NCBI GenBank assembly: GCA_002699085.1
Contig: PAAR01000029.1
Coordinates: 1,249-65,248, forward strand
Source of the DNA: Micavibrio sp.
GTDB lineage: Bacteria; Pseudomonadota; Alphaproteobacteria; Micavibrionales; UBA9664
Direction of reading: 5' to 3'
Length of the DNA: 64,000 nt
The notes under the pieces were generated by a model, which saw nothing but the letters and a program-made list of their open reading frames with translations, was not told the DNA's origin and ran no database searches. How positions within the stretch are numbered: position 1 is the stretch's first letter; every line of letters starts with the position of its first letter. Position numbers and translations under genes: made by a program. Below, in pieces: positions 11,257 to 42,747 of the stretch.

Positions 11257-11359
11257 GCATAGTCTTAATAACGCCCGTAGAATGTTTTTATTGCTATAAT
11301 ATGAAAAACTTGCTATTGGCATAATTATAAAATTTCGTAAACCTATAAGGAGAATTAAA

Positions 11360-12457
11360 GTGGTATTTGGACTAGGAAAAAAGGAAATTAAATCATTCGA
11401 AGATGGTTTGGATTTAGTCGCCTTGCAAGCACGACGTAAAATAAACTTTCGTCAAGATGATCTAGAAAAAATGATCTCCTTTGCCATTGATGAACTCATT
11501 GATGACCGCAATGATGCTGGTAAAAACATTAAGTCATTAACACGTATTTTTGGTTATACAAAAGCAGGCTTAAGTCTACCTTATATTGGCCGCCTAGCTG
11601 CTGCAATCGGATTACTTGGTATTGAATATGCACTTATTGCTAACCATAAAATACAAACTTTAGCTTTAAGTGGTATTGAGTTAAATGCCTCTAATACAAT
11701 CATCGCAGCAATTTCTGCTGCAACTATGACAGTTGCAACAGGTCTTTTTAAAGTTGGTTATGATGCAATGGATAAAGATCAGTGGTTAAGAGGATCACTT
11801 TTGTCTATGGGAGGACTTTCTGTTCCACTTATTCTCGCTTCTAATGGTTATAACCCTGTGCTTATACCCGCAGCTATCTTATCTGGTATCGTTTTCTCTT
11901 CTGCTTTTAAAAAAGACAGTGATCTAAAAAACGCCTTAGACACGCTTACCGCTATGAGTCTGCGTGGTGCAGCTGATGAAGCACGTGCGGAAATTTCTGA
12001 AACTTTTCTTAAGCATTCAGGTGCCACTCTAAATATACCAGAAGCGCCGCAAGCACCTGCAAAAGAAAAATATCCTCCATATCCAATTCTAGACTCAAGA
12101 ATCAAGGACGACGCCAGAAGAGATAAAGCCTTTGAAACAGCCAAAAGGATTTATGAATCGGAAGTAGAAGCCATCAACAAAGATTATAAATTGGCAGTAG
12201 AATCATACACAGAAGCTGTCGCCGCTTATAACGATGAAATGGCACTATACACTGAGCGCACAGGTAAAAATGCTAATCCTTTTAACACTTTTATGGATGT
12301 GTTAAACGCTGCCTATCAAGCTGTTCTTGATGACCGCGGGCTAATTACTAGCAATACAGCGGCGCCAGATGATGAATTTACGCTATATAACTCCAATATC
12401 GTTACTGAAGAAGATATCAAAGCGGTATTCAATCCTTCCAAACCACCTAAACCGTAA
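11360..12457 (+). CDS. hypothetical membrane protein with C-terminal coiled-coil-like region (orphan)
   Basis: 365-aa ORF with a GTG start and an AAGGAG RBS. It has central hydrophobic helices and a charged C-terminal half ending ...NPSKPPKP. Confidence 0.6.
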   Translation: MVFGLGKKEIKSFEDGLDLVALQARRKINFRQDDLEKMISFAIDELIDDRNDAGKNIKSLTRIFGYTKAGLSLPYIGRLAAAIGLLGIEYALIANHKIQTLALSGIELNASNTIIAAISAATMTVATGLFKVGYDAMDKDQWLRGSLLSMGGLSVPLILASNGYNPVLIPAAILSGIVFSSAFKKDSDLKNALDTLTAMSLRGAADEARAEISETFLKHSGATLNIPEAPQAPAKEKYPPYPILDSRIKDDARRDKAFETAKRIYESEVEAINKDYKLAVESYTEAVAAYNDEMALYTERTGKNANPFNTFMDVLNAAYQAVLDDRGLITSNTAAPDDEFTLYNSNIVTEEDIKAVFNPSKPPKP

Positions 12458-12491
12458 AAGACTCATTAGATAGTTAAAAGGAACTTTGTAA

Positions 12492-26757: not shown

Positions 26758-27762
26758 CTATTGGAATAGTAACCCATTCGCAGGATCTAATCCAAAGGTT
26801 TGTTGAACCGCATTAACAAACGGCCCAATATTCACGGCTATCACCCCTGCAATAATATGACTAAATGCCGACATTGCAGTTGCTTGGCCGTTTCCATCCG
26901 CCACTGATCTAAGAATAAACCAACCACGGAAGAAACTAATAACGCCAATAATAATAAGAAAGCTCTCGATCGCTGTCATAATCGCTTCAGCACGCGCCTT
27001 CAGATCAGCATCCATGCCAGCACCATCGGCAAAAACAGGGTTCGTTACTATGCCTGCATCGCCAAATAAAGTAGACGAAATACCACTCAATGCTTGTGGC
27101 GCAGAAAGCAATATAGCTGCCAAAAAGAAACTCATCACTGTCCCGAGACCTAATGGTCCACGAGGACCCTGATCCATGCTTTTTGTCAGGCGGAAAATAG
27201 CATTCATCAACACAAATATACCCGCAACATAACTAAAGGCACTTAATAGCATTAAGCTTGGACCATAGATATCCGAAGATAACGACATCAACATGCCATC
27301 AACAGTACCAACCTGACCACCTTTAAGTCCTTCGAGCCCTAAATCAAGCGCATCACCATCGGCCAAACCAAAGGTTCTGACGGCTATACCTGCAAGTGCA
27401 GGGAGTGCTATAAAAAAGGCCCCCGCAAATAAATAACGAATAGGTGTATTAATTGGCTCACGTGACGGATTATCAACGTGCTTAACAAAATTCAACAGGC
27501 CATAGGCACAAAAAACGAGACCCATAAGATAAGAAACGGCACTAAAAAGCAGCGGAAAATTAGTTAAATTCTCGGTAAGAGTACTCATCATCCCACCCAA
27601 AGTTGTGGCATCTCCACCGCCGGCATTAACTGCTGAAAAAGCACTAAGCGGTAGCGCAAAAGGCGACACGGCATAAGCATCAGCTGCACTCAATAAAGTG
27701 GCCGCCACTAATGTCGTCAAAAATAGTAAGAAATGAATGCTCTGCATTCTTAGCGTACTCAT
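26758..27762 (-). CDS. icmC: IcmC/DotE-like membrane protein built from three IcmD-like modules
   Basis: 334 aa from ATG 27762 (signal peptide ...LLSAADAYA). It has three repeats of a two-helix module; the first loop, KHVDNPSREPI, is almost identical to the IcmD loop. Confidence 0.65.
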   Translation of the reverse strand: MSTLRMQSIHFLLFLTTLVAATLLSAADAYAVSPFALPLSAFSAVNAGGGDATTLGGMMSTLTENLTNFPLLFSAVSYLMGLVFCAYGLLNFVKHVDNPSREPINTPIRYLFAGAFFIALPALAGIAVRTFGLADGDALDLGLEGLKGGQVGTVDGMLMSLSSDIYGPSLMLLSAFSYVAGIFVLMNAIFRLTKSMDQGPRGPLGLGTVMSFFLAAILLSAPQALSGISSTLFGDAGIVTNPVFADGAGMDADLKARAEAIMTAIESFLIIIGVISFFRGWFILRSVADGNGQATAMSAFSHIIAGVIAVNIGPFVNAVQQTFGLDPANGLLFQ

Positions 27763-27958
27763 CTTATCCCTTTTCACACTCTCATTCGTATTTATATAAA
27801 ACACGATAATTATACGTTATTTTCACGCAAAAAAAAGCTCTGAAAATAAATCCTCATTACATAAGCTTTTCACAAAGCCTACACCCTATGAAGAATTTTA
27901 GACATAAAACATTAATAAACAATTAAATCTTGTTCATTTTTATATCTATTACACTAAA

Positions 27959-29656
27959 TTACTGAGTTATTTGGCCTTGCGAGGCACTCACGATCCATCG
28001 GCCATTATTAAGAGCGATACTCTTAATCGTGCCCAAACCTTCCAATTGATCGCCAACAGAAACCTGTTTAAGGGTGCTATTACCCTGACGTGATACCCAT
28101 GCCTGATTTGGTGATGCCGCTCGCAACTCCCATTTCACTGCAGGCTTTTGTGCAACGGGCTGTGTACGTGTAATTGATTTCGTTGAGTTAGATACTACAG
28201 ATGGTTTCGAATGTGACACAGAAGACTGACTTACCTTTCGCTCTAAACCTGATACCTTTTTGTTTAAAGCCTCAATACTATTAGCCAACTTCTGGTAATC
28301 AGCGGACGACTCGGCAGAAACGCCCTCACTATTAATTTTTTGCTCAACCGCTTCTATACGCTCGACAAAAGCTGCTGTTTGCTTTTCAAAACGTGCCATG
28401 TTTTCTGTCAAAGTTTCTGCCAATATTACCAATTCTTGGTTACTACCTCTCGGCTTAGGCTTTGAGACCATTTCTGCTTCGGCCTCTGCTTTACCCATTT
28501 TTTCAGCTGTTGTCTCTATCGATTGCAGTTCCGCTAAAGCCTCAGCTTTATTTTGCTGTTCAATTTCTTTTGGTTTTGCATCACCAAAGGGCGCAGGCAA
28601 TGATAATGCATCATTAAAGCCATCATTTGTACCTTTAGGTTGATACGGCTCAAAGTCAGACATCCTGTCACCTTGCGGTTGTGCAGTAATATCTGCAGGC
28701 GCTGCGTTATCGTTAACTGCCTGCTGCGACGACAATAATGGCGCCAAAGGCTCTGCATTCACATTAGTAGTTGGAACAGCCATCTCGTTCGAAATCGGCG
28801 TCGGTGACGGCAGTCCACCTAAACTTTGTCTTTCGCCAAAATCAGCGACTTGATTCGTATTTGCTAATTGTTGAGACACTGTTTTAGGCGCAGGAACATC
28901 TCGGATTTGACTTTCTAACGCATCAAGATCATCTAGTGTATTACGCTGCAATTGCTTATCCTGTTTGGTCGCTAAGGTCCCTGAATTTAAAATGCCAGAG
29001 AGCGTTTGCGGCTCTTGCGATTGGAGCATTTGATTTTGCTGTTGTTGCTGGGCATTGGCTAATTGCAGCGTTTGTTGCGATTGAGTGTCACCACCCGAGA
29101 ATAATGTTAAATATCCAATAATTATCACAATGAAACCCACCACACCGTAAACAGCGTAGTTAAAGAGTTTTGCATTACCACCACCAAACAGCGCTGACAA
29201 AGGACTACCTGCGTGAGGTTTCTGCTCACCTTGATTAAAATCAGACGAATCAGAAGATACTTCTTCTTGAGGCTTTTCATCCACCCATTCATCATCTGAT
29301 GGAAATTCAGCTTCAGCATCCTCTCCTGATTCAACATGCGCTTCAGGAAATTCAGAATCTTGGAATTCTGAAAACTCAGCATCAATAGGCTCTTCCATGG
29401 CTGGATCTATATAAAAATTATCCTCCAAGAATTCAGCATCATCGAAGGTATCAAATTCATCGAAAGCTTCATCAGGAATGTAATTTTCTGAGAAATTATC
29501 GGTAAAGTCACCTACCTCTTCAGGAGCAGGCATTTCAGGTTCAGACTGATTGGCTTCAGAGTCCACACCTTGTGCTAAATCATCAAAAGCTTGTGAGCCA
29601 GCATTTTCTTGTTCTGACTGCGTTTCATCTTCTGGCTTTTGCGGATCGTCACTCAT
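27959..29656 (-). CDS. icmG: IcmG/DotF-like protein, expanded (acidic N-terminus, TM, Q-rich and coiled-coil regions)
   Basis: Position between icmE and icmC. It has a single TM (NYAVYGVVGFIVIIIGYLTLF). The C-terminal domain WELRAASPNQAWVSRQGNSTLKQVSVGDQLEGLGTIKSIALNNGRWIV resembles the DotF C-terminus. Confidence 0.65.
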   Translation of the reverse strand: MSDDPQKPEDETQSEQENAGSQAFDDLAQGVDSEANQSEPEMPAPEEVGDFTDNFSENYIPDEAFDEFDTFDDAEFLEDNFYIDPAMEEPIDAEFSEFQDSEFPEAHVESGEDAEAEFPSDDEWVDEKPQEEVSSDSSDFNQGEQKPHAGSPLSALFGGGNAKLFNYAVYGVVGFIVIIIGYLTLFSGGDTQSQQTLQLANAQQQQQNQMLQSQEPQTLSGILNSGTLATKQDKQLQRNTLDDLDALESQIRDVPAPKTVSQQLANTNQVADFGERQSLGGLPSPTPISNEMAVPTTNVNAEPLAPLLSSQQAVNDNAAPADITAQPQGDRMSDFEPYQPKGTNDGFNDALSLPAPFGDAKPKEIEQQNKAEALAELQSIETTAEKMGKAEAEAEMVSKPKPRGSNQELVILAETLTENMARFEKQTAAFVERIEAVEQKINSEGVSAESSADYQKLANSIEALNKKVSGLERKVSQSSVSHSKPSVVSNSTKSITRTQPVAQKPAVKWELRAASPNQAWVSRQGNSTLKQVSVGDQLEGLGTIKSIALNNGRWIVSASQGQITQ

Positions 29657-31200
29657 TATTGGCCGTTCAAATATTGGTTAACTTGCTGGGTTGGCTGCGT
29701 TGCGCCAAATAAAGGCTGCTGATTTAAAGGGTATTGACCACCAAATTGTGTTCCATAAGGTTGAGGTTGAATACCATATTGACCATAACCTTGCTGCGCA
29801 TAGGGAAATTGACCTGTTAATCCACCAAAACCACCCTGATTATTATACTGCTGTTGTCGCAGTATCGCCGCATCATTAGGATCATACACATCGTCAGTAA
29901 AGAAAATCGCTACAGGTGTGCCTGCCGCCACACGAATAAGCGGTTCAATCTGTTGCGCTTCATCATCAAGTATGTCATCAAACTTACGTGCACCCTCTTC
30001 TACACCACGCCCTACCTCTTGTTTAACATCAAGGTCTTCCGTATCAGAAACGGTTGCACCACCTGCGCCAACAACAGTTGTCGTTTGCTGTTCAGAGAAG
30101 GCCGATCCCATACCTTCAATAAACCTTGCAGCAGCAGGCAAAACAACACGACGGAAATAACGTCCGTCATATTCTGTTACCATACCGCTAATATTTGTAT
30201 CAGGGTCAAGCGCTACAGCCTGAATAGAATAAGATTTCTTGCCACGTGTCATTCTATTAAACTTAATAGTGATATAACGATCGGTATTGTCAAAATCGCC
30301 GATAATTTTAGCGCCTGAAAAACGTGTATCGACAATTTGCGCCAGAATAGGTCCTGGTGCGTCTGTATTTGCCTCGGTCATTAATTGAGCGTATAAAACT
30401 GTACCCGCCGTAATAACCGGATCTGGCTGGACGTCTAATGGTGCTACTTGCTGCGGTTGCAGCCCTTGTATTTGCCCATTTTGAGAAACGGCGTTACCAA
30501 AACTATTCACTCCCGATTGACCAAAAGCACCACCACCTGCAATCTGCGGTTGTGTGACAGTCATAAGCGTAATCGGTGATATTTGTTGTGTTTCTAAAAT
30601 CGCCTGCATTTGCGCCAACATAGCATCTGACAGGGCCGCTACAGCATTTGGGTCTGGTTGCATACTCACAGCTTGATCGAAACTTTCAACAAACTGATCT
30701 TGCTCTTGCGCCATTTGTGTTTTTTGCTGCTCAACTTGCTCTTCAAACTCCTTGATCCGCCACTGCTTGAAAGGATCCTGCTCATCGTCATTAGTGCTAT
30801 CCGCCTCAAGATCACTCAATACACGGTCTTGGTCACCAAAGGCAATAGTGGGAACAGCACTCCCTACGCCACTGCGCAACGCTTGATCCGCCTCTTGCTG
30901 ATCAGTCTCCTCAATAGCCTGCTTCATAGCAGGTGTCAGCTCATCATCAGGGCCGAGCACAGCACGTGTCGCTGGAGCCCCTGCAATTTGTGATTGATTC
31001 TCGTTAGAGCCATTGCCTGCAAGAAGGAAAACACCCCCTACAACAATCAAAACAGCTGCCAGAACAAGGCCCATCTTAAGTAGAGGGTTATTGGCGAACA
31101 CATCTTTTAATGACTGACCCTTACCGACTTGCGTTTCAAAGCCATCAAAACCATCATCAAAGTCATCAAAGCCGTTTTCTGTATTATTATCATCAACCAT
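29656..31200 (-). CDS. icmE: IcmE/DotG-like (VirB10/TrbI-domain) T4BSS core protein, short form
   Basis: N-terminal acidic segment plus TM (LKMGLVLAAVLIVVGGVFLL). TrbI/VirB10-like block GTVLYAQLMTEANTDAPGPILAQIV...GAKIIGDF...RVAAGTPVAIFF. The stop overlaps the icmG start. Confidence 0.8.
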   Translation of the reverse strand: MVDDNNTENGFDDFDDGFDGFETQVGKGQSLKDVFANNPLLKMGLVLAAVLIVVGGVFLLAGNGSNENQSQIAGAPATRAVLGPDDELTPAMKQAIEETDQQEADQALRSGVGSAVPTIAFGDQDRVLSDLEADSTNDDEQDPFKQWRIKEFEEQVEQQKTQMAQEQDQFVESFDQAVSMQPDPNAVAALSDAMLAQMQAILETQQISPITLMTVTQPQIAGGGAFGQSGVNSFGNAVSQNGQIQGLQPQQVAPLDVQPDPVITAGTVLYAQLMTEANTDAPGPILAQIVDTRFSGAKIIGDFDNTDRYITIKFNRMTRGKKSYSIQAVALDPDTNISGMVTEYDGRYFRRVVLPAAARFIEGMGSAFSEQQTTTVVGAGGATVSDTEDLDVKQEVGRGVEEGARKFDDILDDEAQQIEPLIRVAAGTPVAIFFTDDVYDPNDAAILRQQQYNNQGGFGGLTGQFPYAQQGYGQYGIQPQPYGTQFGGQYPLNQQPLFGATQPTQQVNQYLNGQ

Positions 31201-31227: not shown

Positions 31228-32325
31228 CTATATATCGTCATCATCTGCTTTTTGAGAAAGCGTTGCCCGCACCATCTTACCATTATCAGACAAAAGTAAA
31301 ACAGGTGTTTCTGGTATTGTATAAACTTTTAAACCATCAGCAGAATTAATTGAATTAGACCATGCTGGTGACAACAATGTATATGGCGTACGCAGATAAA
31401 CCTCACTGTTCAACATATAAGCGGACGTTCTGCCATCAATACCTTCAACAATCATCCTTTTTGCACCAGAGGGGATAACACCATCAAGCATTGACACTAG
31501 TGTTGCACTACCAGCTTCTGTTTTAAGTCCACCTTGTTCGATGATGGGTACAGAGGCACTTGGGCCATATTTTGGTATGCGTGCATCAAAGCGGTATTGA
31601 ACAACATCACGATGTGTCTGCAGCATAAAAGTCACAGGTGTATTGAGATCGACAAGACGAATAGAGAGATTGCCACGATTATAGGCCCCTAAAGGACTAA
31701 TCCGCAACACATGCCCACCATCTTCTGGCTGCAAAATATCAAAATCCCCACCCCAACTTACATCTTGAATAGGCCAAGGCTCACCTGATTGATCGAGCAT
31801 AGAAAGCGTTGTCACATGCCCTGGTGCCACTTTAATAATTGGCGGTGCCACACCGGGATCTAATGAAACAGTTTGAACTGTAATTTCAGGCTCAGGCGCA
31901 TCCATGATAGGCGTTTGCGCCGCTTCTGTTGATTCATCATACTTGCCCAATAAGCGGCGAATTTCATCAGGCCTTAACGGTAACAACCCATTAACAGCCG
32001 CATCAAAAGCGAGATCTCTTGCTTGCGCCTCCATCTCTGCTTGGCGCTCTTCAGGAGTCATATTGGCTGCATCTAAAACACCACGTAACTGCTCATTATT
32101 CTGAATATTAACTGGCGGCAACTCAGGCGACTGGGCATTCACTGTGCCAACTTGCCCACCCTCTCGTATTTTTGGTGCAGGTTTGGAATTAGCCTCTTCT
32201 TGCTTCTTACTTTGCTCATTAAAAAGCTCCAAACTCATTTGCGCAAACGCAGAATGAGCAGAAGCCATGAAAGACATACTTAAAAGGGCGGTGAAAAATA
32301 TTTTTCTGTAATTGTTAATAATCAT
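31228..32325 (-). CDS. icmK: IcmK/DotH (R64 TraN-like) outer-membrane core complex protein
   Basis: 365 aa with a signal peptide (...ASAHSAFAQ). Its position between icmL and icmE and its size fit. The conserved-looking C-terminal beta-rich domain is consistent with DotH. Confidence 0.75.
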   Translation of the reverse strand: MIINNYRKIFFTALLSMSFMASAHSAFAQMSLELFNEQSKKQEEANSKPAPKIREGGQVGTVNAQSPELPPVNIQNNEQLRGVLDAANMTPEERQAEMEAQARDLAFDAAVNGLLPLRPDEIRRLLGKYDESTEAAQTPIMDAPEPEITVQTVSLDPGVAPPIIKVAPGHVTTLSMLDQSGEPWPIQDVSWGGDFDILQPEDGGHVLRISPLGAYNRGNLSIRLVDLNTPVTFMLQTHRDVVQYRFDARIPKYGPSASVPIIEQGGLKTEAGSATLVSMLDGVIPSGAKRMIVEGIDGRTSAYMLNSEVYLRTPYTLLSPAWSNSINSADGLKVYTIPETPVLLLSDNGKMVRATLSQKADDDDI

Positions 32326-32443: not shown

Positions 32444-33139
32444 CTAACCTGCGAAAGCGACCCATTGCTGAATGCCAATGCCGCTTGGGCTTTCAAGCCT
32501 TGGTACACGTACAACAATTAAGCGAACAATCTGTGAATTTGTCCGTGAACTTGCACCTAACTGAAAGTTTATCAACATAGGAATCTCTATTTCCCATTGA
32601 TAGCGACCATCTTTAATACCTTCAGAACGAATAATTGGTGCTGATCTTGGTGTCGCTGTCACTACTTGACGGTTCTTGTTAACTGCTTCAATAACACCAG
32701 AATCTTGCAATGCACGGGTAAAGCTCTGCCAACCATCACGTGTAAAATGACGAGATGATTCTTGTAACCGTGTACGATAGTCATGGAATCCGAAAGTCAT
32801 CACTTCGGTCGCCGCCTGAGCCGCCCATGAAACAAGCGCAGGATGAGATAAATTAGGCTCACTTAACGCTATCATTGGCACTAAACGCCCATCTTCCGTC
32901 GTTGCAAAATATTGGTTACGTGGCTCTGTAAAACCCATAAAAAAGACTAAAGCTAAGATCAACCCGACAATGGCAACCGTTTGCATCATTGTGATTCTTA
33001 CTAAAGAGCGATATCCATCACGATAAAAGCTATTACGCGTGACAACGGCGTTTAATGCCGATGATGTTACTTTCTCATCTACAGGCATTGCCTTAGCAGA
33101 TTTCGGGGACTCTTTTACAGGTGGTTTCGTATTAGCCAT
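32444..33139 (-). CDS. icmL: IcmL/DotI (R64 TraM-like) inner-membrane T4BSS protein
   Basis: Strong resemblance to IcmL: VVTRNSFYRDGYRSL..., single TM, ...DGRYQWEIEIPMLINFQ...VVRVPRLESPSGIGIQQWV. Confidence 0.9.
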   Translation of the reverse strand: MANTKPPVKESPKSAKAMPVDEKVTSSALNAVVTRNSFYRDGYRSLVRITMMQTVAIVGLILALVFFMGFTEPRNQYFATTEDGRLVPMIALSEPNLSHPALVSWAAQAATEVMTFGFHDYRTRLQESSRHFTRDGWQSFTRALQDSGVIEAVNKNRQVVTATPRSAPIIRSEGIKDGRYQWEIEIPMLINFQLGASSRTNSQIVRLIVVRVPRLESPSGIGIQQWVAFAG

Positions 33140-33293
33140 GATTCAATCTAAAATGTTTATCGCCATTTGCAAAGACAAATCCTTCAAATAACTTAATTTT
33201 TCATAATATTTACAAAAAATGTGATTCTCAAGTGGAAATTCATATAAAAACCATGGTATACTAAAAATTAAAGACTGTGAGCATGAGGAATCG
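33140..33293. promoter_or_regulatory. AT-rich divergent intergenic region (icmL operon vs paralog pair)
   Basis: 154-bp non-coding spacer between divergently oriented starts. The promoters are inferred, not identified. Confidence 0.35.
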
Positions 33294-35177
33294 ATGGTGT
33301 GTATAAATAAGGCAGCTTGTCTGCTTTTAGCTTTTTTACTAGCTTTATTACCAAGTTTTGCGGCATATGCCGAAGCAGGGTACACGCCCATTCCTCGCTA
33401 TGCGCAGCATGATAATGCAAATCAGCAAAATCAACCGCGCCCTTATATTGATTACCAACCTTCTCCCGCATATGAAAAAGCAGTAGAGAAACTAAGGCAA
33501 CAAACACCTCAAGCTACACAAGCAAATATTGTACCCGCCCAATATATACCGGCACAAGCTGAAGGTGCCCAAAATGATGTTTATGGCTATCAATTACCCG
33601 GTGCACTTTCTGGTTACAGCAACATAGCAAGTAAAGCTGTTTCTGCACTTCAAGAATTTTTTAGCTTTATTCTAGAAACATTGCAGGTCGTTTTTGGCTT
33701 CTTAGATAATAGTACACAAGACGAAGTTGCCAATAACTCACAAGCTGCTGACAAGCTTCAAACCGAAGCAATGGCAACAGATTCCTTTTATGCGACACGT
33801 GATGCAGCAATACTCGACGCGCAACAAAGCGATAACATACATAGAGCTATGGAAAAGGACGCTTTTAACGCTAAACTGCCTCTTGACGTTGCCTTTAATT
33901 CAGGACTTGTCGGCTTAATGTGTAGAGACAATTCTACACGTCAAGGCGTCTCTGCGGCTTTGGTCGCTGGAAAGGTCACCGTTGAAGGATTGGCTGAAAT
34001 TCAATCTGATAAAAATGCTCAAACCTCGACTGGTTCATATAGTGCCGCTAGCGGTGGCGGCGGTGGTGGCGGCGGTACAGGCCCAGATGATTCTGGCAAC
34101 CCAGATGATTCATCTGATGCTAGTAACAAAGAAAATATCATCAATGAAGGACCTGGTGCGGCTGGACCATTAGATGAGATCAATGATCGCTGGGGTACGG
34201 TGCTTCTATTCTGTAACCCAGGTGACCCAAAAGTTGAGAAATCTGGCGATATGAATGGGGCAGCAAAAGCATTTTGTCCAGCAACCTGTTCTGAAGGCCA
34301 AGGTGCTAAATGTAATTACGTTGCCAAAGCCTATAAAGATGCCGCTGGCCGTGATATGCCTGGCTTACTGCCGCCAATTAACGCAAGAGACAGAAAAACA
34401 GGCGGTGCAGGCTCTTTCAAAAAAGACAATACGATTTATAACATGGATACGAGCTATTATAAGGCAATTAATGGTCGTAAAACATGGGGATTAGGCTATT
34501 ACCTGCACATGAATGAAGCTACTGGTAAAGCCGATAAATGGCAAAAAAGATCTTTAGCTTCAGATGAGGCAATCGCCGAATTCTTTTTACAAAATGTTTT
34601 CCGGACGGCAGTAACACCTTTACCACGAAACGTGATTGAGGAATCTATTGACGAAGATACTGGATTACCCAGTCTTGAAGCTGTTGAGTTTTTACTTAAC
34701 CATAAAAGTCTATCAGCACAACGCAGTGTGGCGCAAAATGTCTTTATTAACCAGATCGCTTATAAAAGACCATCACCAGTTGAAAATAGATATTTATTTG
34801 ATCAAGCACAGGACATTCTTCTAGGTAACAAACTTAATGATCCATCAGCAGACAAGCCTCAAGATGCCTATGAGAATTACAAACTTGAAATCATGGGCGA
34901 CCCTAATAAGAAACAAGGGCCTAGCTATGAAGCACAGTTAGAATATTTGGCAAAATTGGTCTATTTGAATCCGGATTTTATTATCTCAAAAGCTCCAGAA
35001 GATTTTGAAAATAAAATGCAGCTCATGGCAGCTACTAAAAATATTGTAACTTACGATCTTCTTGAAAGCATGAAACGTCAAGAAGCTGTGATGGCCACTA
35101 TATTAGAAGTGCTCCTGACACCAAAACAACGTGAGTTAGAAGAAAAAAGCGAATTAATATCACAAGGTGGCCAATGA
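33294..35177 (+). CDS. secreted protein of unknown function, paralog A (T4BSS/pilus-associated)
   Basis: Signal peptide MVCINKAACLLLAFLLALLPSFAAYAEA. It shares several collinear blocks with the next ORF, e.g. PSYEAQLEYLAKLVYLNPDF...RQEAVMATILEVLLTPKQRELEE. Confidence 0.7.
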   Translation: MVCINKAACLLLAFLLALLPSFAAYAEAGYTPIPRYAQHDNANQQNQPRPYIDYQPSPAYEKAVEKLRQQTPQATQANIVPAQYIPAQAEGAQNDVYGYQLPGALSGYSNIASKAVSALQEFFSFILETLQVVFGFLDNSTQDEVANNSQAADKLQTEAMATDSFYATRDAAILDAQQSDNIHRAMEKDAFNAKLPLDVAFNSGLVGLMCRDNSTRQGVSAALVAGKVTVEGLAEIQSDKNAQTSTGSYSAASGGGGGGGGTGPDDSGNPDDSSDASNKENIINEGPGAAGPLDEINDRWGTVLLFCNPGDPKVEKSGDMNGAAKAFCPATCSEGQGAKCNYVAKAYKDAAGRDMPGLLPPINARDRKTGGAGSFKKDNTIYNMDTSYYKAINGRKTWGLGYYLHMNEATGKADKWQKRSLASDEAIAEFFLQNVFRTAVTPLPRNVIEESIDEDTGLPSLEAVEFLLNHKSLSAQRSVAQNVFINQIAYKRPSPVENRYLFDQAQDILLGNKLNDPSADKPQDAYENYKLEIMGDPNKKQGPSYEAQLEYLAKLVYLNPDFIISKAPEDFENKMQLMAATKNIVTYDLLESMKRQEAVMATILEVLLTPKQRELEEKSELISQGGQ

Positions 35178-36745
35178 TGAAGCACACATTTCATCATGGA
35201 TTACTATGCCTCACCCTTGTTTTTATGATGGCCTTTGTGCCTGTTGCACAAGCCTATGCGGCCGGTAATTACACCTCTTTCCAAACATTAAAAGAGGAAG
35301 AGAAACCGACGAAACAAGGCGTTGTATATAAATATGATGAATGTCCTCATAAAACGGAAAATGGGGAATGCGCCCAATCACCTAATGCAAAACCTGTTTT
35401 TTATACCACAGCAGCTAATGTTATTAGCGGTGGTATTGCTATTATGCAGCTTCTTACTGAACTTCTTGGTGAGTTCTTCAAAAAGGTTATCATTAAAGGC
35501 CTTATAAGTTTTCTTACTAACATTGTGACAACATTTTTCAGCTTCTTGACCGATTTATTTGATTTTAAGTCGCAGGCCTTGCGTCAAAATGAATCGAAGC
35601 GTCAAAATGAGAAACTGGCTTTTGAAGCGCTTAATAAAACACGCGAAGCCGCTTTACAAGATTCCATACATAGTCGTGCAATCCACGATAGCCTAGAAAA
35701 AGACGTTTTCAATGCGACAAAAGATACTGGTCTTTCTGAACAAAGTGGTGAAATGGCCCTGCAATGTAAGATTAATACGCAATATAAATACCAATCTAGT
35801 GCCTTTGCGACCTCCGTTAATACAGCAACCATCAATGCTGATAAAATGGCCGACAATGCTGGCGCCCAAGAAGGACCTCTGGAGAACCTTGTAAGAAGAG
35901 CAAAAGACTGTCTTAACTACAGCGAAAATGATCTTAATGGCAGTGTTTCAAAATATGTTGAAGAATGTAAAGCAAAATACGGCGCCGCTATAATTGCCAA
36001 AATTAATGCCGACGCTTTACAAGGAGAAAGCACAGATTTCCACTCTAAATGTGATGACGGCGATGATCTTAGCATTACTAATTTTATAACCAACCCTACC
36101 TATATTGAGCAAGAAGACCCAGGTTGTGGCAAACCAAATACTGGCGCAGAAGAAAAATATAAGCTCAAGGGATTCATAGATCACTATACTGGTGAGCGGG
36201 CAACTACACCCATCACGGAACAGGCCATCAAAGACAGCTATAACGAGGAAACTGGCATGTTGGGTCAAAATGAAATTGAATATATCTTAGAAAAGAAAAC
36301 ATTCGACTCGCTTACCTCAATTGTTGATAACTCGCTCAACCATCTTTTAGCCAAAGACAAAGAACCCGTTCTGCGTAGCAATAACGACGGAGAAAGACAA
36401 TTCTTAACCAATGAAATTAAAGAGATCATTGGTGATGAAGGCGCAACTGACAAAAAATATGCTGCGTATACAGGTAATGAAAACTATTTACCCAGCTATG
36501 AAGGGCAGTTGCAGTTCTTGGCCAAAATCCAATATACAAACCCTGCTTTTGAATCAACTAACTTTAGTAAGCTAGGTTATGAAGGCGGGATGCTAAGAAA
36601 GAGTGCCACAGAGAGCATGGTTTTATACGATGCCCTTCAATCAGCGCAGCGCCAAGAAGCTATAATGGCAGCTATTCTGGAAGTCCTCCTGCAGCCAAAA
36701 CAAGAAGAGCTTGAAGAATTGTCCGCAGAGTTAAGCGGCAATTAA
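35174..36745 (+). CDS. secreted protein of unknown function, paralog B
   Basis: Signal peptide ...FMMAFVPVAQAYAAG. ATGA start/stop overlap with paralog A. Shared blocks include PSYEGQLQFLAKIQYTNPAF...RQEAIMAAILEVLLQPKQEELEE. Confidence 0.7.
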   Translation: MMKHTFHHGLLCLTLVFMMAFVPVAQAYAAGNYTSFQTLKEEEKPTKQGVVYKYDECPHKTENGECAQSPNAKPVFYTTAANVISGGIAIMQLLTELLGEFFKKVIIKGLISFLTNIVTTFFSFLTDLFDFKSQALRQNESKRQNEKLAFEALNKTREAALQDSIHSRAIHDSLEKDVFNATKDTGLSEQSGEMALQCKINTQYKYQSSAFATSVNTATINADKMADNAGAQEGPLENLVRRAKDCLNYSENDLNGSVSKYVEECKAKYGAAIIAKINADALQGESTDFHSKCDDGDDLSITNFITNPTYIEQEDPGCGKPNTGAEEKYKLKGFIDHYTGERATTPITEQAIKDSYNEETGMLGQNEIEYILEKKTFDSLTSIVDNSLNHLLAKDKEPVLRSNNDGERQFLTNEIKEIIGDEGATDKKYAAYTGNENYLPSYEGQLQFLAKIQYTNPAFESTNFSKLGYEGGMLRKSATESMVLYDALQSAQRQEAIMAAILEVLLQPKQEELEELSAELSGN

Positions 36746-36759: not shown

Positions 36760-37782
36760 TTAAAAAAGACCAGTTTCGCCTAAACCACTATCATCTGTTA
36801 AAGGCACAGGTGCTGCATCATTAAGGGGTGTCGTTGCACGTGGTGCATTGGTTGGTGCTGTCATATTAGCACCTGGAAAACCCGAAAATTGCGCTTCTAA
36901 ATCACCTAAAGACGTCGGAATTTCACGTGGCACGGGTGCTTCATTTCTATTAAGAGGCGCAGGGTCAAGTCGGATGATTTCTCCTGCTTTCGTCACTTCC
37001 ATTCGGCCCGGTTGTACTTTTGTCACACGCGACCCATCAGGCAGCGTTTCATCAACCTTAACTGTACGACGAAAATCGCCATTTTCTTTACTGCCTAAGA
37101 CAGCCTCACAAATACCTGAAAGACAAAAAATTTCTATCCACTCGTAATTAGATGTTACTGCCACGGGTTTTTTCTTCAATGAAGATGACATATCACCTTT
37201 GGCCGCTTTTTCAATCACAGCATCAAGCGCACTTTGTGCTGTTTCATTCGAGTTCAGATTTGGCCGCAACGCATTTTGCAACGCCGCAACTTCATCGACA
37301 GCTGATGCTTTCTGAGCTTTTTGTTCATCTAATTCTTTTAAACGCTGTTCTAATACATCTTCTGTCCCAGGGTATACCTCTGGATAAGCATTAAAACACG
37401 GTACATTAGCCGGCACTTGCTCACATAAACCACGTGGTGGCTGCGGTGTCGTGTAATTTACACCAATACTGGTATAAGCCTTTTGAATCTCACTCACTTG
37501 TTTTTGCCAAGTAATGAGGTTCTCAATTAAAGCAATCTGATATTGCAATGTAATTTTGTCTGCTAAATATTTATTCTGAATCTTGTATTCAGTAAAATTC
37601 TCGGCGTTTAAAACATTGTCTCGATTAAGCTCAGCTTCAATAGGTGGTACTGAAATATCAGGTAATTTTGTTGTAAGACGTTTACTATTCTGAGCATAGG
37701 CATCAGCACTACATAATACCGCCATAACAGCAATAGAACATACTGAAAATTTAAACCATTTTTTATGCCAATGAATATTCAT
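36760..37782 (-). CDS. secreted coiled-coil protein, last gene of pilus operon (PilP-like C-terminal domain?)
   Basis: Signal peptide ...VLCSADAYAQ. The C-terminus VKVDETLPDGSRVTKVQPGRMEVTKAGEIIRL loosely parallels the C-terminus of the PilP-like ORF at 46157. Confidence 0.55.
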   Translation of the reverse strand: MNIHWHKKWFKFSVCSIAVMAVLCSADAYAQNSKRLTTKLPDISVPPIEAELNRDNVLNAENFTEYKIQNKYLADKITLQYQIALIENLITWQKQVSEIQKAYTSIGVNYTTPQPPRGLCEQVPANVPCFNAYPEVYPGTEDVLEQRLKELDEQKAQKASAVDEVAALQNALRPNLNSNETAQSALDAVIEKAAKGDMSSSLKKKPVAVTSNYEWIEIFCLSGICEAVLGSKENGDFRRTVKVDETLPDGSRVTKVQPGRMEVTKAGEIIRLDPAPLNRNEAPVPREIPTSLGDLEAQFSGFPGANMTAPTNAPRATTPLNDAAPVPLTDDSGLGETGLF

Positions 37783-37802: not shown

Positions 37803-39215
37803 TTACGGATTAATAAAACAGCCATCATCACAATTACCAAAATTATTGAAGGTCACATTGCCCTTATTCTCAATATCAATTGCTGACAGCGTATTGTTGA
37901 TAGTGGTCGTTTCACTTAATGTATCAATTGTCGCCAAACTACCTGCCCCATGATCAAATGATGCAGGGCCTGCGGTGGCTGGGTTATCTTGCACAACCAA
38001 TGTATCGCCACGAATCTCCCGTTGCAGGTTAAGTTGTAATGTATTTGGATTGGCGGCATTATTAATTAAGTTACTTACCGCCATACCGGCAACCGAATCC
38101 ACGTTTAAAGCACCGCCATTAAGGTTAACTGTGCCTGACACAAGATTCTCCGCATTAAATTCATTGGTTGTTACACGTTCAACTTGAAGCTCCTCGGTAG
38201 TCATAGACTGACCAATTTCCAGAGTATTTTGAACGGCCAATTCACTGCGTCCGACGCCATAAGCCGAACGAGTTGCAGGCGTTAAAATCGTATCGCCCAA
38301 TGCAAAGCCTTGCGCCCGCACCTGCCCATCTACCGCAAAATTACCATTAATGTCAGTCACGCCGCCAACATAAGCCGATCCTTGCACAATCATATCCTGC
38401 GTAACAGACAAATCTCCCGCAACATTAATATTATCGACCCCCACAAGATTATTACTCGCCATATTTAAATCAGAATTCATCACATGTAACTCAGGACGTG
38501 TGAATTGCGGTGTACGATACAAATAATCACCAAAAACATCTTCTTCATTAATGTATGAATAATGCGCAATATAGGCTTCATCTGTTGAAATACCTGTTGC
38601 TGTTGCGGCTGTGTGCCAGCTTGTACCTGCCATATCGGCAAAATTAACATGCCAAATGCCGAAAATCCCACGAATAGGGTCATTCGCAGCGACTAATACA
38701 TCATCATAATAAAGACCGCCTTGGCCACCCATTAACTCAGCCGTAGGCTTAGCACGGTCTGTTGAAATAGGGTCTTCAGAAAGAATTAAAATATCCAAGG
38801 CTCTAGTGGCGGCAGTATCTGCCACCAATACATATATCTCCAAATTAGTCTTTAAAGGACTATAGGCACTGGCATTTTGTGCAATAACAGAGCTTGGCTC
38901 AAGACCCAAGCCAACATCACCTGCCGTTAAAAAAGTAAATGGTATTTCATAAACACCCGCCGTGGTAAATCCAGGATTAACAGCGCGTAAATAAATAGCG
39001 TCGAACATTACTGGGTCTTTCAACATTTCCTCAGTCGCCGTTGCAATCTGCTCAATATGCTCTGCCGCGTTACCTGCAAGTTCATCTCTGGCTAAATTTT
39101 GTAAAGCAATAGATAGCCCAATCAACAATGTTGTCGCCACAATCAATGAGAGCAGCAATTCCAACAGCGTTAAACCAGACTCATGATGTATGTTGTTGTA
39201 TCCCTGTTTTAGCAT
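37803..39215 (-). CDS. giant pilin-headed protein 3 (PilV-like putative pilus tip adhesin)
   Basis: Prepilin N-terminus MLKQGYNNIHHESG/LTLLELLLSLIV (Glu5 present). Motif LYRTPQFTRPELHVMNSDLNMASNNL, an N/G/V/T-rich repetitive C-terminal half and a terminal Cys pair CDDGC. Confidence 0.7.
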   Translation of the reverse strand: MLKQGYNNIHHESGLTLLELLLSLIVATTLLIGLSIALQNLARDELAGNAAEHIEQIATATEEMLKDPVMFDAIYLRAVNPGFTTAGVYEIPFTFLTAGDVGLGLEPSSVIAQNASAYSPLKTNLEIYVLVADTAATRALDILILSEDPISTDRAKPTAELMGGQGGLYYDDVLVAANDPIRGIFGIWHVNFADMAGTSWHTAATATGISTDEAYIAHYSYINEEDVFGDYLYRTPQFTRPELHVMNSDLNMASNNLVGVDNINVAGDLSVTQDMIVQGSAYVGGVTDINGNFAVDGQVRAQGFALGDTILTPATRSAYGVGRSELAVQNTLEIGQSMTTEELQVERVTTNEFNAENLVSGTVNLNGGALNVDSVAGMAVSNLINNAANPNTLQLNLQREIRGDTLVVQDNPATAGPASFDHGAGSLATIDTLSETTTINNTLSAIDIENKGNVTFNNFGNCDDGCFINP

Positions 39216-40714
39216 GGATCACCACCTGATGTCTGACAGAATACTTTTGTACCGACACCCATCGATTTTGTTACATTCGTCGTCCCTAAAACGTTCATGT
39301 TGCCAGATACATCTAAAGCCCGAGTAACACGCAAATCACTAATGTTGGTATTTGTATCTTCAATAATAGCCTGTAAAACAACAGACCCTGCGGCATTAAC
39401 TGTTTCAAAGGTATTCGTAGCAGCCCCATTTCCAACCATCTGGAAGGCACCGGCATCAACATTAATCGGCTGAGAGCCTGATGCTGCGTTCATATTCATC
39501 GTAAAGGCTGTCACTTTACCAAATTGCGCAGGATCAGCACCCGGTGCCGCTTTACTCACGATAACATCTTGGAATTCTGCTGATGTAAAGGTAACGGCCG
39601 TATTACCTGACCCTTCAACAATAATATCTTCTGCAACAACCGCACCTGTATAAGCCGGTGCCACTGCCGATACATCAAGAAAATCGACATCATTTTGCAC
39701 AAGGATAGCGGGATTTGTAGCGTCCGAGAAATTGACAACCATATTACCGCCGACAATATCACACCCTGCACCAACAACGCCGCCACTGCCGTCAAATGCA
39801 CAACCAGACCCATCAGGACCAATAACAGCATGGTTAATTGATACAGCATTATTAAATTGCGCCATTTGTGAAATATTGAGTGCATTGGCAAAAGTACCCT
39901 CCGTGAAACCTTGTGCCAAAATTTCAGTATTGCCAGCCACCTCCAAACGATCGACAGTCATCGCTTTGGCACCTGTTAAACTATAATTATTCATATCAAG
40001 ATTAGCTTGCATAACATTCGCATCGACAGCTGTCGCTATAGGAATCTTATACAAAACATCACTATTCATAGATTCAGCCTGCGAAATCCTGCCATACGCC
40101 GCCAAATAACCGCCTTCATCCGCATCTGGAACAGAAGTACCCGCCGCGACAAATGGCGCTCTATTGATGCTCCATTGACCAGAAAGACTTGTAATATCGT
40201 TGGGCGTGATAATGCCGCTTGAATAACCCAGTTTAGCACCACCGTAACTCGCAATTTTACGCAAACGTGCATCTGGTATATATGCCGTTCCAGCTGCTGG
40301 ATCTTCACTAATAGTCAAAACTTCAATCGTTAAACCATTTGTAAAATTAGTCCCTAAATTACGAATATAAACAGTAATATCTTGCTGAAACCTATTCGTT
40401 TCTTTAAAGCCTGCCGCTAAAAAATTATCTGTCTTCAATGTTGCTAATGGCACTTCGCCAATATCATTGGTATTAGGAATATTAACAGTCACAATATCCG
40501 AGAAATTAGCGGCAACATAATTTTCTGCAGCTTGCTGTACATCAAGCATTTGAGCTGCAATACGCTGGTTCGAGACACGTACAGCACTATCTTTCAGAAT
40601 AGCCGTTGCTGCTATGCCAACTAATGCCAGAACGCCTACAACGAGCAGAAGCTCTATCAAAGTAAAGCCCTTCTCTCTTTTTAATCGACCTAAATTGCAC
40701 ATTCTCTTATCCAT
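39209..40714 (-). CDS. giant pilin-headed protein 2 (PilV-like putative pilus tip adhesin)
   Basis: Prepilin N-terminus ...RLKREKG/FTLIELLLVVGVLALVG. Motif LYKIPIATAVDANVMQANLDMNNYSL and a terminal Cys pair CQTSGGDPC. TAATG overlap with the upstream ORF. Confidence 0.7.
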   Translation of the reverse strand: MDKRMCNLGRLKREKGFTLIELLLVVGVLALVGIAATAILKDSAVRVSNQRIAAQMLDVQQAAENYVAANFSDIVTVNIPNTNDIGEVPLATLKTDNFLAAGFKETNRFQQDITVYIRNLGTNFTNGLTIEVLTISEDPAAGTAYIPDARLRKIASYGGAKLGYSSGIITPNDITSLSGQWSINRAPFVAAGTSVPDADEGGYLAAYGRISQAESMNSDVLYKIPIATAVDANVMQANLDMNNYSLTGAKAMTVDRLEVAGNTEILAQGFTEGTFANALNISQMAQFNNAVSINHAVIGPDGSGCAFDGSGGVVGAGCDIVGGNMVVNFSDATNPAILVQNDVDFLDVSAVAPAYTGAVVAEDIIVEGSGNTAVTFTSAEFQDVIVSKAAPGADPAQFGKVTAFTMNMNAASGSQPINVDAGAFQMVGNGAATNTFETVNAAGSVVLQAIIEDTNTNISDLRVTRALDVSGNMNVLGTTNVTKSMGVGTKVFCQTSGGDPC

Positions 40715-42747
40715 TAAAACGGTGTCCCCGGGTCAATATCTTCAATTTCAGGACAATCACCTGAACAAACTGCCTCAGGATCGCTACCACTAGCACGCTG
40801 TATATTTGTCAAACCTGAAAAGACAGTATCACCAAACACCTGAACACCCTCGTCCGATACAACATTATCTGCTGTTAATGTTTGGCCATTAGCGACCGTT
40901 AAACGACCCATGATTGTTTCATAGCTATCTGGGCCGATTGTTGCCGCCCCATACAAACCACTACCCTGATCGCCCAATACAAAATTTTCAACATTCAAGC
41001 CGTTGGAAAAATTTGCTGACTGAGCGTTAATATTATTACCGTTCACACGGAAGTCACGTACTGTTAAGCCAATATTATCGCTCGTTGATAAGAGTGAGGG
41101 GTCTATATTCATCCCTTCTGGTAATAAAATACTGTTTAATCTGACTACCGTTTGACCCGATGCCTTGGCCGCATCAGCAGAAAGAACCTGCCCATCAACT
41201 GTCGTTCCTTCAGCAATACCAATATTTATTGTGGCATTCGGTGCTTGTAATTCAGGCGTAATAATATTGGCTTGTGAGGCTAATAAATTACCCGATATAC
41301 GCATATAAGATGTACCGCCAGAGCCTGTACTAACACTACCTTGTACATTCACATTCTGGTTAAAATAAGCTTGCTGAATCGGCTGAATATAATTGAAATC
41401 AGGATCATTAAATATTTTAACGTTACTATCAACATTGAGTGAACCACCAAGCGCCACGACATCATCAATATCTCTGTTGCCCGCAATAGCATCAATATTA
41501 ACAGAATCCTCAATACCATTATACGTTTCACCTGCAACAACCACACCTGTAGGCGAACCATCCAAGGTTACACTAACATCCCTTGAGGTAGCGCCATCAA
41601 TAGCTCTATCACGTTGATCTGCCGCTATAATACGCTGAAGCGTTAAATTAGATATATTCATGATATTGCGACGATTATCTGCAAATGTTAATGGGTTATC
41701 TCGTATCGTTGGACACAATCTTGAATCAACCTTTTGAATCCCCCCCGCACCATCATCTTCATTGAAAGCAATTGTGTTTTCGCCACCACCATCACCATAA
41801 TAATTTGGATCACCTACATCCTCTATTGCCACATTTGCTTTACAATTCGCATCCACAACATCACCCATATATAAATCTGTAAGCATTGTCGCATAGGTAG
41901 TATTTTCTGGTTGTGGGAAACGCATAACAGCACGCTCATCAAAACGTACAGACTTCCATGCAGGGATAAGCATTTCACCTGGTTGGAATGCTGCGCCTGT
42001 TAAATTATTAAAATCAGCATCGCTTGTACACCCTGTATCCCATGCTGAGACAGCCGGTGTGCCATTACAATTATCAGAAATATTCACCCCTGCACCGTTA
42101 AATAATGGCGCCGAAACAGGTACTTCTAAATTCTGCAAAACGCGTGATAAACGTATGGCATCACCTGCACTTACAGCTGGCGACCCGCCTAATGTTACAT
42201 AGGCTGTTGCAACAGTTGTTGCTAAATTTGAGTCCCCATCAATAGGTGAGTTTGCTGCATACACAGTAATAGGCTGACGTAGAATCGTGCTTTCAGTTAA
42301 ATCGACCGCATTCGCATCCTGATTAACAAAACTAATCGGTAAATAACCTGCCGCAACTAATTGCGCCACAGTAATTTGTTGAGGTGCGCCCGCTGCATTA
42401 ATATCTAACGCTTGCTTATTGAACTGAGCATCTAATATACCATCCCCATTTTGATCGATCGCATTGGCGATCATATAAGCTAAATCTCTTGGCGTATCTG
42501 GAATATTATCCGCATTTGTATCTTCTACAAATTGTGACAAAGAATTATTACGTACCATAAGTCTTGCAGCCTGTGCGATCTGCTTTATCTGCCATGCCAC
42601 AGCCCGTAAGGTACGTTGATCCCTAGCATCCTTATTTGCGGTTGCAATAAAAGCAATAATAAAGGCAAAAGCGATCGTAATCACAAGCATCACAGCCAGT
42701 GAAAAACCTGATTCTTTCTTTCTGCATTGCTTAATCTGATTTAGCAC
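40714..42747 (-). CDS. giant pilin-headed protein 1 (PilV-like; lacks Glu5)
   Basis: N-terminus ...CRKKESG/FSLAVMLVITIAF, where position 5 is Val rather than Glu. Motif VMRFPQPENTTYATMLTDLYMG and a terminal Cys pair CSGDC. 677 aa. Confidence 0.65.
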   Translation of the reverse strand: MLNQIKQCRKKESGFSLAVMLVITIAFAFIIAFIATANKDARDQRTLRAVAWQIKQIAQAARLMVRNNSLSQFVEDTNADNIPDTPRDLAYMIANAIDQNGDGILDAQFNKQALDINAAGAPQQITVAQLVAAGYLPISFVNQDANAVDLTESTILRQPITVYAANSPIDGDSNLATTVATAYVTLGGSPAVSAGDAIRLSRVLQNLEVPVSAPLFNGAGVNISDNCNGTPAVSAWDTGCTSDADFNNLTGAAFQPGEMLIPAWKSVRFDERAVMRFPQPENTTYATMLTDLYMGDVVDANCKANVAIEDVGDPNYYGDGGGENTIAFNEDDGAGGIQKVDSRLCPTIRDNPLTFADNRRNIMNISNLTLQRIIAADQRDRAIDGATSRDVSVTLDGSPTGVVVAGETYNGIEDSVNIDAIAGNRDIDDVVALGGSLNVDSNVKIFNDPDFNYIQPIQQAYFNQNVNVQGSVSTGSGGTSYMRISGNLLASQANIITPELQAPNATINIGIAEGTTVDGQVLSADAAKASGQTVVRLNSILLPEGMNIDPSLLSTSDNIGLTVRDFRVNGNNINAQSANFSNGLNVENFVLGDQGSGLYGAATIGPDSYETIMGRLTVANGQTLTADNVVSDEGVQVFGDTVFSGLTNIQRASGSDPEAVCSGDCPEIEDIDPGTPF

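Follow-up and report, generated by a model that had tools for sequence, protein, structure and literature searches.

The 64-kb window analyzed here, a 64,000-nucleotide stretch of the Micavibrio sp. contig PAAR01000029.1, contains two adjacent genes coding for proteins of 627 and 523 amino acids, referred to as paralogs A and B, which separate the dotI-dotH-dotG genes of a type IVB secretion system (T4BSS) from a thin-pilus operon (Table 1). An initial annotation of this DNA had described two open reading frames (ORFs) of these sizes with an ATGA overlap, situated between the icm block and the pilus operon, and both features are present, with Pfam matches to DotI, DotH and DotG on one side and to Pil proteins on the other, where PilV is followed by a PilS-R-Q-P-O-N-L operon. 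The same annotation spoke of a divergently transcribed pair, which is correct in that the genes diverge from dotI (icmL), but A and B themselves are read in the same direction and converge with a 340-codon ORF.

The ATGA at 35174-35177 combines the TGA stop of A with the ATG of B, and an AAGGTGG ribosome-binding site lies 4 nt 5' of the B start; from this arrangement, translation of B is probably coupled to that of A. Paralog A is preceded by its own GAGGA Shine-Dalgarno sequence at 33285-33289. The A/dotI intergenic region contains promoter-like matches on the plus strand (TGGAAA-18-TATACT with a TG extension, 33233-33262) and on the minus strand (TTGAGA-17-TATTAT, 33231-33203), although these are consensus matches only and are no more numerous than in shuffled sequence. 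The region shares 79-88% nucleotide identity with the related locus L002 and is thus as conserved as its flanks.

Table 1. Features of the A-B locus and of related loci. Coordinates are those of the window unless preceded by the name of another locus.
Feature	Coordinates	Strand	Remarks
dotG/traO	29656-31200	-	Pfam TrbI, E 1.5e-12
dotH/icmK/traN	31228-32325	-	Pfam T4BSS_DotH_IcmK, E 6.6e-82
dotI/icmL/traM	32444-33139	-	Pfam T4BSS_DotI_IcmL, E 1.1e-59
A/dotI divergent intergenic region	33140-33293		154 bp; promoter-like sites on both strands and the GAGGA of A
Paralog A	33294-35177	+	627-amino-acid ORF; A-type IcmX/TraW-like protein
Hypervariable block of A, residues 61-138	33474-33707	+	30-60% amino acid identity to L001; spans the hydrophobic N-terminal helix
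Gly8 run of A, (GGY)8	34053-34076	+	precedes an acidic Ser/Asp linker that reaches ~34154
Conserved C-terminal domain of A, residues 436-627	34599-35174	+	common to all 203 remote relatives
Second hypervariable block of A, residues 493-545	34770-34928	+	30-50% amino acid identity to L001
Paralog B	35174-36745	+	523-amino-acid ORF; B-type IcmX/TraW-like protein
Hypervariable block of B, residues 78-125	35405-35548	+	35-50% amino acid identity to L001; hydrophobic N-terminal helix
Conserved C-terminal domain of B, residues 343-523	36200-36742	+	pLDDT 90-97 in the model
Convergent 340-amino-acid ORF	36760-37782	-	signal-like N-terminus; no family assignment
Two tandem PilV-like genes	37803-39215 and 39209-40714	-	Shufflon_N, N_methyl
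677-amino-acid ORF in the pilus operon, between the PilS pilin and PilV genes	40714-42747	-	no Pfam match
FlgK/FlgL-like genes	L006:11353-14994; L008:13779-17729; L009:15020-18520; L019:19303-22763		four independent loci

Both proteins begin with a classical signal peptide of the signal peptidase I (SPase-I) type, as had been proposed, spanning residues 1-26 in A and 1-29 in B and cleaved after AYA (...SFAAYA/EAG in A, ...VAQAYA/AGN in B), and each has a single N-terminal hydrophobic segment by Kyte-Doolittle analysis. That they are collinear paralogs is also clear, with two significant BLASTP segments, one over the C-terminal 185 residues (E = 2e-24, 35% identity) and one over the N-terminal ~240 residues (E = 9e-15), and with all of the previously quoted motif pairs present in the alignment. 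The signal peptide of A is followed by a conserved segment (residues 27-65), hydrophobic or amphipathic helices (~111-235), a Gly/Ser/Asp linker (236-287), a Cys-containing GPL..R..FC.P..C core, a variable middle and a C-terminal helical domain. The eight-glycine run and acidic Ser/Asp linker (GGGGGGGGTGPDDSGNPDDSSDAS) noted earlier in A are real, although the (GGY)8 lies 3 nt upstream of the 34056-34079 first given. Run length varies between strains, from eight glycines in the window to GGGGGGGGGGGGSGG at the near-identical strain locus L001, and Gly-rich linkers occur at the equivalent position in the relatives P0003, P0017 and P0018. A hidden Markov model (HMM) of the core subfamily matches residues 306-623 of A (E = 1e-29), and its positions 273-416 match residues 367-518 of B (E = 1e-16).

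The signal peptide and first ~40 mature residues of A (EAGYTPIPRYAQ...PYIDYQPSPAYEKA; 33294-33491) are ~85-89% identical to those of the L002 ortholog, compared with ~35% for the remainder. There are 22 synonymous and 15 non-synonymous codon differences in these first ~65 codons, indicating purifying selection on the encoded peptide. Many near-subfamily members share a G-x-Y-[ST]-x-[FI]-P motif, located directly after the cleavage site.

Neither protein has a match in Pfam, NCBIfam or PHROGs, in keeping with the earlier failure to place them in a family. Among 5.8 billion proteins, word-indexed searching retrieved P0001, P0002 and P0003 alone, which comprise the window protein itself (labeled 'MAG: hypothetical protein CMH30_08955 [Micavibrio sp.]', where MAG denotes a metagenome-assembled genome), a 93%-identical B and a 37%-identical A-like protein. 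An exhaustive HMMER search of 1.84 billion representative proteins with a four-sequence profile yielded 203 relatives at E≤1e-3, 19 of them at E≤1e-10, most being 400-700 residues long and matching through the extreme C-terminus. Homology between subfamilies extends over ~320 columns that include the N-terminal helices and three conserved cysteines, with conservation of 35-46% in the C-terminal domain and 19-39% in the middle, and 106 of 137 members combine an M-start with a hydrophobic N-terminus, as judged by a heuristic and not by SignalP. The family is absent from sequenced plasmids, since tblastn searches of 72,556 plasmids with B and the core member P0025 gave no match. Weak matches to NCBIfam PtsJ and PDB SSO1 (E about 0.05-1) were dismissed as noise, and the JGI label 'YgcG' on P0003 as a low-complexity Gly-rich artefact, there being no TPM domain in Pfam.

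A distance tree places A-type and B-type proteins in separate clades. The A-type clade contains orthologs at L001 (87% nucleotide identity), L002 (P0003, 37% amino acid identity) and L004 (29% amino acid identity) together with P0004, P0005 and P0007, and the B-type clade contains P0001 (93%), P0008 in L002, a B-like start in L004, and P0009, P0011, P0012, P0014 and P0016. Because each clade spans several divergent genomes, the pair appears from this tree to be old, with A and B kept as separately maintained lineages, and its retention suggests distinct or co-assembling roles. Some family members carry hydrolytic domains, with Polysacc_lyase_14 in one A3 member, Lipase_GDSL_2 in the N-terminal part of P0113 (920 residues; L019:10001-12763), and a Glyco_hydro_108 sequence that is apparently, as judged by eye, an insert in the middle region of P0014. 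Such modules would suit a subunit that contacts a cell envelope.

The family is consistently associated with T4BSS genes. In all nine informative loci (the window, L001, L002, L004, L006, L007, L008, L009 and L019; the L018 and L020 contigs are too short to judge and are not counted), its members are divergent from dotI-dotH-dotG and occupy the same slot beside dotI, a co-occurrence that the initial annotation had proposed to test; no homolog lies outside a T4BSS in any of these loci, and no clear assignment to an unrelated family emerged. The contigs of close relatives and one alphaproteobacterial Tara MAG, the latter found by pattern scan, share the order DotG-DotH-DotI (-), A-like (+), B-like (+), 340-amino-acid ORF (-) and PilV (-). 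L006, L007, L008, L009 and L019 have arrays of 2 to 6 tandem genes between dotI-dotH-dotG and a TcpQ-IcmT-TraJ(DotB)-TraI(DotC)-DotD block; of the array ORFs of L006 to L009, every one scanned with the family HMM matches at E≤1e-51. Within the 20-kb loci read, L006, L007 and L009 have no pilus operon and contain only a TcpQ-domain gene, which ties the family to the T4BSS and not to the pilus. Of the original suggestion that A and B are periplasmic or surface components of either the T4BSS or the pilus, the T4BSS part therefore stands and the pilus part does not.

Structure prediction suggests a particular T4BSS subunit. An AlphaFold2 model of B built from a 137-sequence alignment is usable and all-alpha (predicted local distance difference test, pLDDT, 76; predicted template modelling score, pTM, 0.61), with long helices at residues 81-129, 142-230 and 466-520 and a less regular middle; a model from a four-sequence alignment (pLDDT 30) was discarded. 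A Foldseek search of 350,542 PDB chains, a comparison proposed with the initial annotation, ranked 9ngy_AP1 first (E 0.063, probability 1.00), with a root-mean-square deviation (rmsd) of 6.4 Å over 243 columns, compared with probabilities of at most 0.11 and rmsd values of 20-60 Å for all other matches. The 9NGY entry is the in-situ Legionella DotA-IcmX protochannel (PMC12501162). Its 1048-residue chain FP1 is DotA, as identified with R64 TraY, and the 417-residue chain AP1 is therefore IcmX. IcmX has a signal peptide, a conserved N-terminal helix (NH), an extended domain and two conserved C-terminal helices (CH1/CH2), and is VirB5-like and pentameric, with its five N-terminal helices forming a pore-like bundle (PMC12501162). 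The elements of A and B follow in the same order: a signal peptide, long N-terminal helices, a variable middle and long C-terminal helices.

Profile-profile comparison leads to the corresponding subunit of conjugative plasmids. Against a TraW profile of nine members from IncI1, IncK, IncL/M and other plasmids, the family profile A4 gives an hhalign alignment of 265 collinear columns (E = 1.6e-4), in which each of the three cysteines conserved in the family consensus is matched to one of the three conserved in TraW. The C-terminal domain of A aligns to the C-terminal helices of TraW. Subsets of the family point the same way with less significant values (A3, 4.9e-4; near subfamily, 3.5e-3; A1, 0.018; core alone, 0.064), and the controls are clean, with E = 0.71 for reversed TraW, 0.17 for the best of 30 block-shuffles, and at least 0.2 for eleven other R64 Tra proteins. 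As a single sequence R64 TraW is not significant, either by hhalign (E 0.11-0.54) or by phmmer. We regard the profile homology to TraW, a comparison that the initial annotation had also recommended, as being of moderate strength.

The window also has a vacancy for such a protein. Searches with R64 proteins (phmmer and tblastn) detected TraU, TraT, TraR/Q, TraO, TraN, TraM, TraJ, TraI and a TraK-like ORF, to which Pfam adds DotD, and by the same searches no other TraW/IcmX is detectable in the window, in line with the original remark that it otherwise lacks one. Downstream of TraU there are only ORFs of 190 and 179 amino acids, followed by housekeeping genes. No DotA/TraY is detectable either in the 64-kb window (phmmer, tblastn, Pfam) or among candidates at L007 and L008, and the window has no detectable TraX/IcmV, DotL/TrbC, DotM/TrbA or relaxase. 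ORFs of 677, 565 and 348 amino acids and a 1414-amino-acid L008 protein were considered as DotA candidates and rejected, as they have no significant similarity to TraY.

The A-B cassette diverges much faster than its surroundings. Relative to L002, dotI is 79-88% and the 340-amino-acid ORF 69-82% identical in nucleotide sequence, whereas the bodies of A and B are 41-61% identical; the region of low identity extends from just past codon ~65 of A to the B stop. Relative to L001, the flanks are 99.6% and 99.1% identical, compared with 87.1% for A and 93.6% for B, and the amino acid differences fall in discrete blocks: A 61-138, B 78-125, B 161-180, the Gly-rich linker of A, and A 493-545. The A 61-138 and B 78-125 blocks are homologous in position, and A 493-545 forms a loop of the C-terminal domain that immediately precedes the PSYEAQLEYLAK motif. 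The proportion of synonymous differences (pS) from L001 is 0.74 in A blocks 61-138 and 493-545 and 0.77 in B blocks 78-125 and 161-180, compared with 0.19 for the remainder of A, 0.06 for that of B, and 0-0.06 across dotI, dotH, the 340-amino-acid ORF and both PilV genes. Because synonymous sites are saturated inside the blocks, these are better explained by imported divergent alleles than by point mutation in situ, and the cassette appears, from the pattern of substitutions, to diverge through block-wise recombination centered on the hydrophobic N-terminal helix. Positive selection acting purely in situ was rejected on the same grounds, together with a non-synonymous to synonymous rate ratio (dN/dS) of about 0.1. 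The behavior parallels that of Legionella icmX, whose product is the least conserved Dot/Icm protein, recombining, under diversifying selection and surface-exposed (PMC6761968). The swapped N-terminal helix may be the target-facing part of the protein.

From the fold, the architecture, the profile match, the T4BSS context, the TraW vacancy and the evolutionary parallel we conclude that A and B are probably a very divergent, duplicated branch of IcmX/TraW, the VirB5-class subunit of the T4BSS, and the role that had been put forward very tentatively thus gains support from fold, profile, linkage and vacancy. Several observations weigh against this assignment. The Foldseek values for the B model against IcmX are weak (E 0.063, TM-score about 0.3). 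Neither A nor B matches the NCBIfam models NF038225 (IcmX_IVB), even at E≤1, or NF033888 (conj_TraW), and scans of relatives with IcmX_IVB were negative both for 10 taken singly and for 73 in bulk. One of 60 remote relatives does match IcmX_IVB at 2.7e-6, giving thin support, and a ranking of the relatives by HMM score showed no outlier; with conj_TraW one of 73 reaches E = 0.025, which is noise level. None of the profiles A1, A3 and A4 matched a PDB sequence. The TraW profile itself also misses IcmX in this type of search, which is therefore powerless here, and the accepted TraW-IcmX relation is likewise invisible to profile-to-sequence searching, so that sequence tools have little power either way.

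Three other explanations were considered, of which the one with most in its favor is that the T4BSS secretes A and B, after export by Sec, as cargo or effectors of a polymorphic family whose conserved C-terminal domain targets variable payloads to the machine. Two-step secretion of this kind has a precedent in pertussis toxin. Most of the remote relatives match only through their C-terminal 80-170 residues, some members have enzymatic domains (Glyco_hydro_108, Polysacc_lyase_14 and, in P0113, Lipase_GDSL_2), polymorphic toxin loci typically consist of variable genes in tandem, and the cluster has no coupling protein, as in the Ptl and Trw systems (PMC12857230). This explanation nonetheless seems unlikely, given that the ~320-column homology takes in the N-terminal helices and three cysteines and not the C-terminus alone, that the fold and profile matches point to a structural subunit, that no small immunity-like genes are interleaved among the called ORFs of the arrays, and that A and B themselves have no recognizable enzymatic domain in Pfam or NCBIfam. 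The cargo and IcmX explanations do overlap, since IcmX is itself released by the machine. An XVIPCD-type effector of type IV secretion systems (T4SSs) was rejected because of the signal peptides, the ~320-column homology and the lack of small interleaved ORFs.

A and B could also be a lineage-specific periplasmic T4BSS component unrelated to IcmX, such as a scaffold or a substitute for DotF or DotA, with a helical resemblance that is convergent. The weakness of the Foldseek score and the lack of direct matches to curated models or PDB sequences are compatible with this, and with DotA missing from the cluster another protein must fill the central base. Convergence is nevertheless quite improbable in view of the collinear 265-column TraW alignment with its three paired cysteines and clean controls, the first rank of IcmX among all chains searched, and the single family member that matches IcmX_IVB. 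Least credible of the three, and in our judgment very improbable, is a role as accessory proteins of the adjacent type IVb pilus, that is, secreted colonization factors or tip adhesins comparable to TcpF, CofJ or the partners of PilV. The signal peptides and variable surfaces would suit such proteins, and the pair adjoins PilV-like genes and a conserved 340-amino-acid ORF in the window, L001, L002 and L008, but the 20-kb loci read at L006, L007 and L009 contain arrays and no pilus operon, the invariant neighbor is dotI and not a pil gene, A and B lack the prepilin (N_methyl) motif in Pfam, and the B model has no Foldseek match in the PDB to pilins or TcpF-like proteins.

As putative IcmX/TraW proteins, A and B combine familiar and novel features. 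Legionella pneumophila IcmX (9NGY; 'IcmX-B5' in the unified nomenclature) is the best, though weakly scoring, structural match of the B model and is similarly Sec-exported, T4BSS-encoded, fast-evolving and recombining, and at 466 residues it falls in the same size class as the core subfamily (420-480 residues). Unlike A and B, however, it is single-copy and lies beside icmW-icmV-dotA; the A/B genes diverge from dotI, the family is duplicated (2-6 copies), A and B are longer, with a Gly/Ser/Asp linker in A, they lack a direct match to a sequence model, and no DotA partner is detectable in their cluster. TraW of the IncI1 plasmid R64 is linked to A and B by the family profile, by cysteines in register, by aligned C-terminal helices and by an IncI-like (mating-pair formation type I, MPF_I) gene set with a PilL-PilV thin-pilus operon. 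It differs in that the conj_TraW model does not recognize A and B, that these lie outside a traV-traW-traX-traY block, which the window lacks, and that their family occurs as paralog pairs or arrays in a chromosomal island where neither a relaxase nor a coupling protein is seen.

The closest functional precedent is the Bartonella Trw T4SS, which has no coupling protein and has tandem variable copies of a VirB5-class subunit proposed to diversify target binding (PMC12857230). Its multi-copy VirB5/VirB2 organization resembles the present clusters, with their tandem variable tip subunits and lack of a coupling protein, although Trw is type IVA and the A/B family type IVB, and A and B are apparently ancient lineages kept as a pair and not only recent amplifications. 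As in the PilV shufflon adhesins of IncI thin pili, variation is concentrated in a part that would recognize the target cell, but PilV is a pilin that varies by site-specific DNA inversion, whereas A and B vary by duplication and homologous block replacement and have no prepilin motif. What is new here is the duplication, the location beside dotI and not dotA/traY, the fast-evolving cassette, the enzyme fusions and the missing partners.

If A and B are indeed IcmX/TraW proteins, Sec would export both and their signal peptides would be cleaved, after which the long N- and C-terminal helices would bundle into an oligomer along the machine's central axis, surrounded by the outer-membrane complex of DotC, DotD, DotH and DotG encoded next door. 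The variable Cys-containing middle domain would provide the exposed surface, and activation would push the assembly outward to meet the envelope of a target cell. Contact with the target by this part of the machine could account for evolution of the cassette by duplication (A and B here, up to six copies elsewhere) and by block-wise recombination at the hydrophobic N-terminal helix.

Several further observations concern the surroundings of the pair. The T4BSS/pilus island extends from 21428 to 56903 and is bounded by housekeeping genes, with a DEAD-box helicase and two-component genes to the left and Bax1-I, a sialyltransferase-like gene and an ABC-F gene to the right. No integrase is detectable within it, and the only tRNA gene of the window (Ala, 63214-63289) is about 6 kb outside. 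A polytopic DUF6750/TraQ-TraR-like membrane protein with internal repeats is encoded in the window (26758-27804, minus strand; 348 residues), at L007 (2157-3791; 544 residues) and at L008 (406-4650; 1414 residues, about 11 repeat units), and one repeat region weakly matches the N-terminal transmembrane region of R64 TraY (independent E-value 0.0035); the protein may substitute for the absent DotA/VirB6-like base. The 340-amino-acid ORF is kept between the array and the PilV genes at L001, L002 (L002_341, E 5e-184) and L008 (L008_339, E 1e-43). The tandem PilV-like genes occupy the place of a shufflon and, unlike A and B, are conserved between strains (pS ~0.05). The 677-amino-acid ORF beside them has a strongly hydrophobic N-terminus (residues 11-40), and neither a prepilin peptidase (PilU) nor a PilT-type lytic transglycosylase was recognized at its position.

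In four of the related loci, and not in the window, the T4BSS clusters include genes for FlgK-like (hook-associated protein 1; Flg_bb_rod, FlgK_D1, Flg_bbr_C) and FlgL/flagellin-like proteins, located close to or immediately after the IcmX-like arrays; on the more speculative reading given below, their products might be extra axial parts. Outside the island, three consecutive plus-strand ORFs of 365, 365 and 625 amino acids (10159-14369) lie upstream of ResB/CcsA cytochrome c biogenesis genes and have no Pfam match; the first two, being of equal length, may be paralogs.

IcmX/VirB5-class proteins are the components of a type IV secretion machine believed to make contact with the target cell, and how they choose and open that target has only just become structurally tractable, with the DotA-IcmX structure of 2025. 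The assignment proposed here gives two 'hypothetical proteins' of a Micavibrio-like MAG a testable role and would extend the class to about 200 unannotated sequence clusters missed by current Pfam and NCBIfam models. With its ancient paralog pairs and its arrays, N-terminal helices that recombine and fusions to enzymes, the family would be a natural experiment in tip diversification, one that points to the hydrophobic N-terminal helix as a testable determinant of specificity or attack, and the apparent absence of DotA and a coupling protein from the cluster raises the question of what forms the channel base and what the substrate is. More speculatively, and we consider this possible but doubtful, the cluster could represent a distinct T4BSS lineage of marine Micavibrio-like alphaproteobacteria that uses exchangeable IcmX-like tips as a contact-dependent device for recognizing and breaching the envelope of prey or host cells, and not as a conjugation apparatus. 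Its cluster would do without DotA, coupling protein and relaxase, its tips, present as ancient A/B pairs or in arrays with as many as six copies, would have a membrane-facing N-terminal helix swapped by recombination, and some tips would bear lipase, muramidase or polysaccharide-lyase modules. The whole locus would be of still greater interest if it turned out to serve Micavibrio-like predators as a device for recognizing or attacking their targets.

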